Positions 35,990-40,980 of a DNA stretch of 64,000 bases are shown one piece after another. The DNA comes from Candidatus Omnitrophota bacterium (GTDB lineage Bacteria; Omnitrophota; Gorgyraeia; Gygaellales; JBFMHM01). Where the stretch lies: NCBI GenBank assembly GCA_040753015.1, contig JBFMHM010000005.1:14730-78729 (forward strand), read 5' to 3'. The notes beneath the pieces were generated by a model. That model saw nothing but the letters and a program-made list of their open reading frames with translations, had not been told where the DNA came from and did not search any database. The stretch's first letter is position 1, and each line of letters begins with the position of its first letter. Both the position numbers and the translations under genes were made by a program.

Positions 35990-36068
35990 TGGCGGGGGCG
36001 ACGGGATTTGGACCCGCGATCTTCAGATCGACAATCTGACGCGTTAAACCAGGCTACGCTACGCCCCC
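35990..36068 (-). tRNA. tRNA-Asp (anticodon GUC)
   Basis: Manual cloverleaf: acceptor GGGGGCG/CGCCCCC, D arm GCGT...ACGC, anticodon stem TCAGA/TCTGA with loop TTGTCGA, T arm GCGGG-TCCAAAT-CCCGT, 3' GCCA encoded. Confidence 0.85.
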
Positions 36069-36086
36069 ATAAATACAGAGATAAGA

Positions 36087-36173
36087 TACAAGAATTAAGA
36101 TTTAAGAAAATCTTAAAACAAGATCTATGAAACAAAACTACAAGAATTAAGATTTAAGAAAATCTTAAAACAA
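36087..36173. repeat. Two perfect 35-bp direct repeats (tacaagaattaagatttaagaaaatcttaaaacaa), each containing a hairpin, immediately flanking the four-helix-bundle gene
   Basis: Copies at 36087-36121 and 36139-36173, identical by inspection. Each has the internal inverted repeat ttaagattt/aaatcttaa. Confidence 0.85.
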
Positions 36174-36200
36174 AACCGCCAAACATAAGAACTAAAAAAT

Positions 36201-36566
36201 TCATAAATCAGTTTTTAAAGTAAGTACTATTTTACTTAAAATTTTAATAACTTCAATATTTTCTTTTTCAATGCCTAATAACGGTTCGCTATTCGAAATT
36301 ATCTTGGCATCTTTAAAAATCTGTAGCCAATTATCAAATTCATAACTCGAATTGAGTGCAATCGTAAAATAAGATTCCTTATGTCTAATACTTGAAGCAC
36401 TATTACCTTCGGCAATGTTTGCTCCAATCGAAGTTGCTGCACCTAAACATTGATCAATAATTTTTGAATATTTTTGACTACAGTTATTCAGTAAATTAAT
36501 TATTAAAAGAGCATTTTTATGAGCCTTCTGCCAAACTATTAATTTTCGATATTGCGGCACATTCAT
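36201..36566 (-). CDS. Four-helix-bundle protein (TIGR02436-type; the family found inside 23S rRNA intervening sequences)
   Basis: LIVWQKAHKNALLI...QCLGAATSIGANIAEGNSASS...ESYFTIALNSSYEFDNWLQIF matches the family signature (S-I-x-A-N-I-A-E-G). Confidence 0.75.
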   Translation of the reverse strand: MNVPQYRKLIVWQKAHKNALLIINLLNNCSQKYSKIIDQCLGAATSIGANIAEGNSASSIRHKESYFTIALNSSYEFDNWLQIFKDAKIISNSEPLLGIEKENIEVIKILSKIVLTLKTDL

Positions 36567-36579
36567 AATCTAAGTTTTA

Positions 36580-36670
36580 AGATTTTTGTTTTCTTAAATC
36601 TTACTTCTTAACTTTTGAGTTTAAAAGTTTTTGATTTTATCTTAATTCTTAAATCTTATTTCTTAATTCT
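36580..36670. repeat. Hairpin-rich repeat block related in inverted orientation to the 36087-36173 repeats, on the other side of the four-helix-bundle gene
   Basis: Contains taagattt...aaatctta hairpins and agaattaaga / agatttaagaa segments, the reverse complement of motifs in 36087-36173. Confidence 0.6.
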
Positions 36671-36677
36671 GTATTAA

Positions 36678-36751
36678 TGGGCGCTAGAGGACTCGAACCC
36701 CTGACCCTCTCGGTGTAAACGAGATGCTCTAACCAACTGAGCTAAGCGCCC
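36678..36751 (-). tRNA. tRNA-Val (anticodon UAC)
   Basis: Manual cloverleaf: acceptor GGGCGCT/AGCGCCC, D arm GCTC-AGTTGGTTA-GAGC, anticodon stem TCTCG/CGAGA with loop TTTACAC, T arm AGGGG-TTCGAGT-CCTCT, discriminator A. CCA is not encoded. Confidence 0.85.
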
Positions 36752-36995
36752 TAACATCTACACTTTCATTTAAAAACTTTCTACCAACTCCGCTTTTAAG
36801 AAAATTTTCTCTTTTTCGCGCTTCTGTAATGTTTAAATATTGCTCTTTATAAATTAATTCGAAAGGACCATTTTCTTTAGTCCATTTATTAGAACCATAA
36901 TTATGTTGTTTAAGTCTATCTTCCGGTAAATTCTTAGTACTGCTTATATATCTCTTACCGTTACGTAAACTTTTTAAGACATAAACATAATACAT
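36729..36995 (-). CDS. Small GIY-YIG nuclease-domain protein; its 3' end overlaps the tRNA-Val gene
   Basis: YYVYVLKSLRNGKRYISSTKNLPEDRLKQHN...GPFELIY...EARKRENFLKSGVGRKFL, the GIY-YIG motif pattern. Confidence 0.7.
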   Translation of the reverse strand: MYYVYVLKSLRNGKRYISSTKNLPEDRLKQHNYGSNKWTKENGPFELIYKEQYLNITEARKRENFLKSGVGRKFLNESVDVRALSSVG

Positions 36996-40038: not shown

Positions 40039-40980
40039 CTACCTTTTACGCTCTCTATTATCTTGGTAGGTTTTTACTGCCTCAAAGCTCGTCAACCAAT
40101 TTCTGCCTTCTTTATAAGCTTCAATCTTTCCTTGACGACAAAGTAAATTTAAATATTTTTCTGAATAGGGTGTAGTCTTTGCAATCACTGATAACAACAT
40201 AAATTTACCTTTACTGTCTTTTGCGCCAACTAGAGTTTTTAAGTAAAGATTAATTGAACGCTCAACTGCCTGTGCTATAAATCTTACAAATTGAATATAA
40301 TTTCCTTTATCAGCTTTTTCTAAACTATCATAATATTTTTTACGATCATTTTTTAAAATAACAATTAATGGATAGCCTTTTTGCATAAGTAATAAATTCA
40401 TTACTAAGCGGGCAGTACGCCCATTGCCATCGAAAAATGGGTGTATAAAAACAAGCTTGTGGTGGACTATTGTAGCTAACTCTATCGGGTGTAGCTTATT
40501 TTTATTTACTCTTATCCATTCTAATAAATCCTTCATTAATATAGGCACTTCAAATGCGTCTGGCGGCCTATGAGATGAACCAGTAATAATAACATTGCCC
40601 TTGCGATATACCCCAGCTTCTTTTGGCTCTGTATCTTTTATAACCAATTGCTGAAGGTTACGAATTAATATTTCAGAAAAAGTAGCTCGCTTCCCATGCT
40701 CAATTAATTCGTACAAATAATTAAGTGCTTCGTAATGATCTTTTGCCTCAAGGTGATCCTTTAAAGATTTACCCTTAATAGTAATACCTTCGTTAATAAT
40801 TAAATAGGTCTCTTTAAGTGTAAGCTTATTACCTTCAATCGCATTAGAATTATAAGTCATTTCAATAGCAAACTGCTCTCTAAGCTTTGCTACTTGCTCA
40901 GGAGATAAAGGGCGCAGCTTCTGCAACTCTTTGAGTTTTGAATCTACACGCTCTCTTAAATGATCCTCTAAATATTTCAT
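40039..40980 (-). CDS. Fic/Doc family protein (AMPylation-type fold) with a C-terminal winged-helix-like region
   Basis: Canonical Fic motif HPFFDGNGRTARL. Confidence 0.85.
   Translation of the reverse strand: MKYLEDHLRERVDSKLKELQKLRPLSPEQVAKLREQFAIEMTYNSNAIEGNKLTLKETYLIINEGITIKGKSLKDHLEAKDHYEALNYLYELIEHGKRATFSEILIRNLQQLVIKDTEPKEAGVYRKGNVIITGSSHRPPDAFEVPILMKDLLEWIRVNKNKLHPIELATIVHHKLVFIHPFFDGNGRTARLVMNLLLMQKGYPLIVILKNDRKKYYDSLEKADKGNYIQFVRFIAQAVERSINLYLKTLVGAKDSKGKFMLLSVIAKTTPYSEKYLNLLCRQGKIEAYKEGRNWLTSFEAVKTYQDNRERKR

Follow-up and report, generated by a model that had tools for sequence, protein, structure and literature searches.

We analysed a 64,000-nucleotide stretch (hereafter the window) of contig JBFMHM010000005.1 from a Candidatus Omnitrophota bacterium, and found between its tRNA-Val and tRNA-Asp genes, at positions 36,069 to 36,677, a gene encoding a four-helix-bundle (4HB) protein which is enclosed by complementary arrays of seven-nucleotide repeats. 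The tRNA-Val gene, the 4HB gene and the tRNA-Asp gene are all on the minus strand. We think it moderately probable that this locus is a cassette of the intervening sequence (IVS) type resident in the tRNA-Val/tRNA-Asp unit, namely a promoterless PF05635 open reading frame (ORF) placed within inverted heptamer arrays and released by RNase III.

According to this reading, the cassette would be transcribed by read-through from the tRNA-Val side, and in the precursor the two arms would form a stem with about 30-100 bp, which would run from a few nucleotides past tRNA-Val to a few nucleotides before tRNA-Asp. The flanking stem probably allows excision by RNase III, which would cut it as in the IVSs of 23S rRNA. 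The cleavage would set a panhandle mRNA encoding the 4HB protein apart from the two tRNAs, whose maturation RNase P and 3'-end trimming would complete, and through this separation the insertion would be harmless to the host operon.

Arms, predicted stem and encoded protein

Read in the RNA sense, the 5' flank of 111 nt begins with TTAATA-CAGAATT-AAGAAAT-AAGATTT-AAGAATT-AAGATAA, and the 3' flank of 132 nt terminates in the complement, ...TCTTAAT-TCTTGTA-TCTTATC-TCTG-TATTTAT. The arms are therefore heptamer arrays with an AAGA/TCTT core (AAGAnnn and nnnTCTT). The outer 5' arm is purine-rich, begins 2-6 nt past tRNA-Val and reads AATACAGA-ATT-AAGAAAT-AAGATTT-AAGAATT-AAGATAA... in the RNA sense. 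Independently, Tandem Repeats Finder (TRF) reported AAGAATT at 36090-36108 and 36142-36160, and 4.4 copies of TCTTAAT at 36640-36670. Each flank contains two modules, which form an outer and an inner pair (Table 1). Over 56 nt, the arms at 36063-36118 and 36629-36684 show 79% complementarity.

Folding of the sense RNA (36069-36677, minus strand) gave -140.1 kcal/mol, compared with -104.1 +/- 5.1 for the shuffled sequences (z = -7.0). Eighty long-range pairs enclose the ORF in this fold with a mean pair probability of 0.87, and the inner arms contribute helices of 6, 14 and 10 bp. An earlier note on this DNA, made from the sequence alone, had proposed a long-range stem enclosing the ORF in the tRNA locus; the predicted fold contains such a stem, and the flanks pair stably in it.

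The same note had described two perfect 35-bp direct repeats on one side of the ORF, at 36087-36121 and 36139-36173. We confirmed that they are 100% identical, and a 27-mer taken from them had two matches in the window and none in 100 shuffles. Inverted copies of their motifs were found across the ORF at 36574-36675, also as described. In these direct repeats the 3' arm is locally doubled, and a doubling on the 5' side mirrors it (repeat family D2). The further claim, that every direct repeat contains a hairpin, held in part. The palindrome TTAAGATTT-AAGA-AAATCTTAA with its 9-bp arms is indeed present in both copies (36095-36116 and 36147-36168), but small hairpins of this kind were not found in the relatives, and in the minimum-energy fold they give way to the long-range pairing. 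They are alternative local pairings, a by-product of the local doubling of the arm and not a feature of the family.

The ORF between the two tRNAs had been noticed as TIGR02436-type, and profile searches agreed: it matches TIGR02436 with E 4e-22 and 78.6 bits (cut-off 24) and PF05635 with E 7e-21 and 74.8 bits (cut-off 33.8), and both tRNAs were detected by ARAGORN and Rfam. The AlphaFold2 (AF2) monomer model (pLDDT 95.1) comprises four long helices. Through Foldseek comparison of the model, we found pentameric XCC0516 (2GSC, TM-score 0.84-0.91), BT_0352 (2RLD, 0.78-0.87), which is also matched by sequence with E 8e-10, and bAvd (4DWL, 0.78/0.85); 4DWL together with the ribonucleoprotein (RNP) 8UB7 of a diversity-generating retroelement (DGR) scored about 0.75-0.85, with just 9-11% sequence identity between the window protein and Avd. 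The proteins of 2GSC, 2RLD and 4DWL are homopentamers.

The median pairwise dN/dS among the orthologues was 0.17, and the 4HB ORF is functional and under purifying selection. PADLOC and PHROGs gave no match to the protein, and scans with Pfam, TIGR02436, PADLOC and PHROGs detected no transposase, recombinase or nuclease domain in its 121 amino acids. More speculatively, the protein, by homology to Avd a pentameric RNA-binding barrel, might recognise its own cassette by binding to the periodic stem.

Related cassettes in Omnitrophota and other phyla

An exact look-up of the window protein gave no match, and a homology search detected an identical protein (100%) in a Candidatus Omnitrophota metagenome-assembled genome (MAG). 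The window protein heads a clade of about 65 proteins with 55-75% identity, mostly from Omnitrophota. Scanning of genome and metagenome contigs yielded 160 loci, to which we give L numbers where they must be told apart. Besides the window, 16 loci carry an orthologue in the order tRNA-Val(UAC), 4HB gene and tRNA-Asp(GUC) on one strand, and in two further truncated loci tRNA-Asp alone is visible. Eight of the Val-Asp loci have V-ATPase subunits I and K on their upstream side, and therefore the slot is syntenic. In all compact loci, the 5' flank opens about 6 nt past tRNA-Val with CAGA followed by TAAGRnn heptamers, and the 3' flank closes with the complement and TCTG, 6-8 nt ahead of tRNA-Asp.

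In an ungapped, base-anchored alignment of 12 loci (A2), 84.5% of the cells pair, which decreased to 36-52% when the partner was slid by 1-3 columns. Both sides have changed in 13 of the 29 pairs, and none of 500 shuffles reached the observed values. An all-against-all duplex matrix, calculated from tRNA-trimmed flanks because 100-nt flanks pick up tRNA sequence in compact loci, indicated that cognate arms out-pair non-cognate arms (permutation p < 1e-4). The repeat could have been unrelated to other 4HB loci, as the earlier note had allowed; instead, the 16 orthologous Val-Asp cassettes share a base-anchored and covarying stem. The conservation is also periodic: four positions of each heptamer (AAGA/TCTT) are invariant, and the other three are variable and often mismatched. 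The invariant AAGA core points to a sequence-specific reader besides pairing. The number of heptamers changes fast: the nearly identical cassettes of L005 and L083 (dS 0.014) agree fully in their 3' flanks, and their 5' arms are set apart by exactly one heptamer (AGTAAAG). This is evidence of a slippage-type change of copy number, as among Coxiella strains.

Four further Omnitrophota loci (L161-L164) have the same V-ATPase-tRNA synteny, and their AtpK is 79-85% identical to that of the window. Their Val-Asp spacers, of 54-104 nt, contain neither ORF nor heptamers, so the cassette was gained or lost as a unit. Since the V-ATPase synteny is kept and dS is saturated, the cassette is a long-term resident and not a recent insertion.

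Two of these empty spacers (L162 and L163) contain a promoter-like TTGCAA/TTGAAA-17-TACAAT just upstream of tRNA-Asp, and in the cassette-bearing loci there is no room for a spacer promoter at this position. Among the 17 Omnitrophota cassettes, 12 have a promoter-like site within the final 120 nt of the ORF, compared with 4.3 +/- 1.6 in synonymous-codon shuffles. The commonest one, TTGAAG-16-TA[AC]AAT over the codons IEVIKIL, is homologous in L001, L002, L005, L081-L083 and L085 and resembles the spacer promoters of the two cassette-free loci. The ORF-end site looks like a local adaptation of a long-resident cassette to the downstream tRNA. We rejected an internal promoter as a general trait of PF05635 genes, as the wider family had 16 sites where 19.3 were expected; the trait is specific to the Omnitrophota clade in the tRNA slot.

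Cassettes were found next to other tRNA genes as well. In L024 (Oscillospiraceae) the cassette abuts tRNA-Leu. In L008 (173-1079), a paralogous 4HB cassette with 54% identity is located between tRNA-Tyr and tRNA-Gly; its flanks are long and complex, with AGCTAAG heptamers, GC-rich hairpins and several TCTATAATCTGCATTTATG units downstream.

The architecture extends over the whole PF05635 family. We compared 154 loci from many phyla for which both flanks were available, with z of at least 5 as the threshold for an inverted repeat and control positions 1.3 kb away. A flanking inverted repeat was found in 70 of the 154 loci and at one of 217 control positions, and 65 of the 70 have period 7. The heptamers vary by lineage (GGGAATT, GGAAAGT, TGAACAA, CAGTCAA, GAGGTCG and others), and purines usually predominate in the sense 5' arm (mean 0.68). 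The paired arm has a median of 33 nt, with lengths from 18 to 60 nt and more. None of the 40 inverted-repeat loci that we checked is located in rRNA. Neighbouring long ORFs are mostly co-oriented with the 4HB gene (49 of 53 upstream, 40 of 49 downstream), with gaps of tens of nucleotides. Inverted heptamer arrays are thus a hallmark of PF05635 genes across many phyla, nearly always at sites other than rRNA and within co-oriented gene strings, and the recurring layout suggests that these are insertable gene cassettes which are not confined to rRNA. Heptamer distance also follows protein distance significantly (Mantel rho 0.22); the correlation is confounded by shared descent, and we rejected it as evidence of recognition.

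Perfect inverted heptamer arrays were also observed around cyanobacterial 4HB genes, in L165 (1330-1870, Nostoc sp. HK-01 plasmid1), L166 (1296-1795, Aulosira laxa plasmid2), L156, L117 and L069. They include GAGGTCG x4 with CGACCTC-type units, AAATTCA x4 with TTTTGAA x5, and CAGTCAA arrays. The Nostoc and Aulosira plasmids are finished sequences, in which these 4HB genes are annotated merely as hypothetical proteins. The arrays resemble the short tandemly repeated repetitive (STRR) heptanucleotide repeats, of unexplained origin, in heterocystous cyanobacteria, and the two may be linked. On the metagenome contig of L117, a match to group II intron domain 5/6 (RF00029, 51.6 bits) is located at 1484-1562, about 440 nt upstream of the heptamer-flanked 4HB gene (2001-2336).

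Layout of the locus and neighbouring genes

The features of the locus are collected in Table 1. Rfam detected no rRNA in the window. Whether run in gathering or in E-value mode, it returned tRNAs only, and the arms match no known RNA family. We found no promoter-like or terminator-like sites between tRNA-Val and the ATG.

Table 1. Positions of the cassette and its adjoining tRNA genes in the window, listed in the direction of transcription
Feature	Position	Strand	Remarks
tRNA-Val(UAC)	36678..36751	-	ARAGORN (anticodon TAC); Rfam 69.3 bits; directly upstream of the cassette in transcription sense; CCA not encoded
Outer 5' arm	36624..36675	-	Pairs with 36072-36126; TRF period 7, 4.4 copies
Inner 5' arm, second module (..TAAGAAGTAAGATTTAAGAAA..ATCTTAAAAC)	36574..36617	-	Pairs with 36133-36171; stops 7 nt short of the ATG
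4HB gene, 121 aa, PF05635/TIGR02436	36201..36566	-	ORF and profile HMM
Promoter-like TTGAAG-16-TAAAAT	36229..36256	-	Within the 3' end of the ORF, codons IEVIKILSKI
Inner 3' arm	36133..36171	-	Holds the second 35-bp direct repeat (36139-36173)
Outer 3' arm, pyrimidine-rich heptamer array (RNA sense)	36072..36126	-	Ends TCTGTATT, 3 nt ahead of tRNA-Asp; holds the first 35-bp repeat (36087-36121)
tRNA-Asp(GUC)	35990/35993..36068	-	ARAGORN (anticodon GTC); Rfam 65.6 bits; directly downstream of the cassette

All genes between 29.7 and 41 kb are on one strand and include V-ATPase D, I and K, the tRNAs, PEPCK, SAICAR synthetase and two-component regulators. A Fic/DOC-family gene (40039-40980, minus strand; PF02661, E 4e-22) lies directly upstream of the V-ATPase D gene in the same co-oriented string.

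Directly upstream of tRNA-Val there is a GIY-YIG ORF of 88 aa (36729-36995, minus strand; PF01541, E 1e-12) with a weak PHROG match to homing endonucleases, and its last codons and stop overlap the 5' part of tRNA-Val. Just upstream of its ATG, at 37051-36994 (minus strand), we found an exact second copy of tRNA-Val nt 1-28, which is split after nt 17 by a 30-nt insert composed of two 15-nt GC-rich hairpins. The GIY-YIG ORF resembles an insertion of the homing type in the tRNA gene, with the intact tRNA restored via duplication of its 5' part. GIY-YIG homologues lie beside the same tRNA loci in other Omnitrophota, as detected by tblastn in L004 (3364-3806), L009 (4145-4393) and L091 (1371-1562). 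That of L004 follows a tRNA-Asp-like 5' fragment (GGGGACGTGGTGTAGCC) and is located between the 4HB cassette and the intact tRNA-Asp.

Sequences similar to tRNAs, with several GC-rich hairpin inserts in the D- and T-loops, were found in L003 (2621-2990), L004 (2758-2990) and L009 (3493-3901). In L003, four inserts break up a tRNA-Val(TAC)-like gene, and L009 has three tandem 160-nt repeats, each containing an 89-nt tRNA-Asp-like unit that reaches merely 31 bits. These hairpin-broken sequences could be pseudogenes or tRNAs which need unusual processing.

Candidate readings and known systems

The earlier note had ended by calling the locus a mobile or RNA-processed element. Flank pairing, covariation, the Coxiella precedent and the empty sites support this description, in which the RNA processing is what we infer. 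Several observations weigh against an IVS-type cassette in the tRNA operon. The alignment-based wobble count has no sense-strand bias family-wide (70 vs 65) and in Omnitrophota is a trend at most (18 vs 8, p = 0.076), so it does not separate selection at the RNA level from selection at the DNA level. The sense-strand G-U bias seen on RNAduplex structures (61 vs 30) is partly an effect of the folding algorithm, and we dropped it as RNA-level evidence. The stem is mismatched periodically, at 1-3 of every 7 positions, which makes it a non-ideal substrate for RNase III. Divergence of the 4HB protein is uncorrelated with that of the host AtpK (rho 0.28, p = 0.21); vertical inheritance is therefore unproven, and vertical descent with losses looks the same here as site-specific spread. 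The conserved promoter-like site near the ORF end could drive tRNA-Asp on its own, and this tRNA may then require neither read-through nor processing. Finally, both co-transcription and RNase III cleavage are deduced from sequence features.

The stem might instead be mainly a docking and regulatory platform for the cassette's own protein rather than an RNase III site, with the pentamer sitting on about five heptamers and either autoregulating translation or shielding the duplex; we regard this as possible, though on the unlikely side. Translational autoregulation is conceivable because the 5' arm has the Shine-Dalgarno region and the AUG at its inner end, and in most loci this arm reaches the ATG. 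The 7-nt period is kept across phyla though the sequence changes, the mismatches recur periodically, and the median arm corresponds to about 4.7 heptamers; the perfect repeat of the window, 35 nt, is 5 x 7. The fold also matches the pentameric 2GSC, 2RLD and Avd, and in the DGR RNP a single RNA stem-loop is gripped, by way of its flipped-out bases, by each of the five Avd protomers (10.1101/2023.10.23.563531). This structure sets a precedent for the reading of a periodic and imperfect stem by a pentamer. The wide range of arm lengths speaks against such a platform, and the correlation of heptamer and protein would be expected from shared descent too. Moreover, docking is compatible with the RNase III model and does not exclude it.

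The arrays could also act at the level of DNA, as terminal inverted repeats made of reiterated protein sites and bound by the 4HB protein or by an enzyme acting in trans, which would thereby move the cassette; the RNA pairing would be incidental. We judge such a mobile element unlikely. Presence and absence of the cassette at a syntenic site agree with it, as do the terminal inverted repeats themselves, the many unrelated settings in which cassettes are found, conjugative and mobilizable plasmids among them, the lack of a sense-strand wobble bias, a conserved AAGA core that exceeds the needs of pairing, the tracking of protein similarity by heptamer similarity, and the uncoupling of 4HB from AtpK divergence. 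However, the 121-aa protein has none of the catalytic domains looked for, and no direct target-site duplication is visible: the complementarity runs to within 2-3 nt of both tRNAs, and the sequences beyond the arms (TTAATA... and ...TATTTAT) are complementary instead of direct repeats. The element is single-copy within the 64-kb window, its orientation is strongly biased relative to neighbour genes with a constantly purine-rich sense 5' arm, and in Coxiella, the sole relative studied experimentally, the arms act as RNA.

Two other explanations were rejected. Chance low-complexity repeats beside a decaying passenger ORF might be expected in an inter-tRNA region of 25% G+C, and the short motif TTAAGATTTAAGAA, with 2 mismatches allowed, is not enriched across the window (10 matches vs 5.9 expected). 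We nevertheless consider this hardly credible at all, since it is refuted by the fold z-score, the shuffles of the 27-mer, the conservation and covariation over 12-17 loci, the rarity of such flanks at control positions and the dN/dS. It is scarcely more plausible that the gene is the accessory (Avd) gene of a DGR. PF05635 is the commonest accessory domain near DGR reverse transcriptases (PMC10053308), and the fold resembles bAvd. But the low identity to Avd argues against it; no reverse transcriptase or template/variable repeat pair is present within +/-6 kb, the Pfam scan of the 29.7-41 kb neighbours listed above, Fic included, contained no reverse transcriptase, and the sole repeats are the heptamer arms.

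A broader proposal, which we offer tentatively and hold to be rather improbable as a whole, is that PF05635 genes and their inverted heptamer arrays are widespread self-recognising cassettes that colonise any transcription unit, be it an rRNA helix, a tRNA spacer or a protein operon, the pentamer binding about five heptamers of its own stem in the way that Avd grips a stem-loop, and the resulting RNP controlling excision and perhaps spread. If it were true, the classical rRNA IVSs would be a special case that happened to be noticed first, and the STRR-like heptamer arrays of cyanobacteria could be footprints of cassettes.

Knowledge of rRNA IVSs and of the 'S23p' ORFs in them goes back to the early 1990s, with the origin of the IVSs and the function of the protein unexplained; ORF-containing IVSs of 23S rRNA occur in Leptospira, Coxiella burnetii, Brucella and Xanthomonas. 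The window cassette shares with them the PF05635/TIGR02436 family, an ORF within complementary termini that form a long stem, and a position inside a stable-RNA transcription unit. In the Coxiella 23S IVS, the terminal stem has 28 bp and cleavage in mid-stem by RNase III was shown experimentally; two to three tandem GACAGAT heptamers, variable in copy number between strains, precede the S23p ATG, and the ORF is decaying and probably untranslated (PMC4990558). Tandem heptamers of variable copy number ahead of the ATG are found here too, as in L005 and L083. The differences are that the window cassette lies in a tRNA-tRNA spacer and not in a helix of 23S or 16S rRNA, that purifying selection acts on its ORF, in contrast to the decaying one of Coxiella, that excision by RNase III was shown for IVSs and is predicted here, and that the end of its ORF contains a promoter-like site, seemingly an adaptation to the tRNA that follows. 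In the strict sense the locus falls outside the rRNA IVSs, since it is placed in a tRNA spacer and fragments no rRNA; it has all the other testable IVS features and most likely works like an IVS.

Genes of the same domain have been reported outside the classical setting, as 23S_rRNA_IVP genes within cas operons by Zhang and Ye (PMC3936711) and in rRNA insertions of the Candidate Phyla Radiation (CPR; PMC11270868). In our literature searches, we found no account of 4HB cassettes in tRNA spacers, nor of inverted heptamer arrays as a trait of the family.

With bAvd (4DWL; RNP 8UB7) the window protein shares the four-helix-bundle fold, and the homologues form pentameric barrels with a positive charge, which bind structured RNA. 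It is unlike bAvd in sequence and in having neither reverse transcriptase nor template/variable repeats near its gene, and Avd is not known to be flanked by heptamer arrays. The analogy with the Avd-RNA structure provides a hypothesis for the S23p-type protein, as a pentamer that may bind a stem with 7-nt period.

The Correia elements of Neisseria are also inverted repeats in transcription units and, when co-transcribed, potential RNase III substrates, and can carry outward promoters (PMC2649163). They are non-coding, multi-copy elements with target duplications, whereas the window cassette encodes a conserved protein, has heptamer arms and is single-copy in the window. The processing stems of rRNA operons are similar in another respect: within the precursor of a stable RNA, long-range pairing of the flanks places the neighbouring mature ends side by side for RNase III, and tRNAs are released from the same precursor, as would happen in the window. 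There the enclosed gene is the rRNA itself, and here it is a protein-coding passenger.

Taken as an IVS-type cassette in a tRNA operon, conserved under purifying selection and with empty sites in related genomes, the locus would show how a protein gene can reside in a stable-RNA operon without harming it. The family-wide pattern lifts it beyond a single oddity: as inverted heptamer arrays occur throughout the family and mostly outside rRNA, the IVSs of rRNA can be reframed as one landing site of a general cassette.

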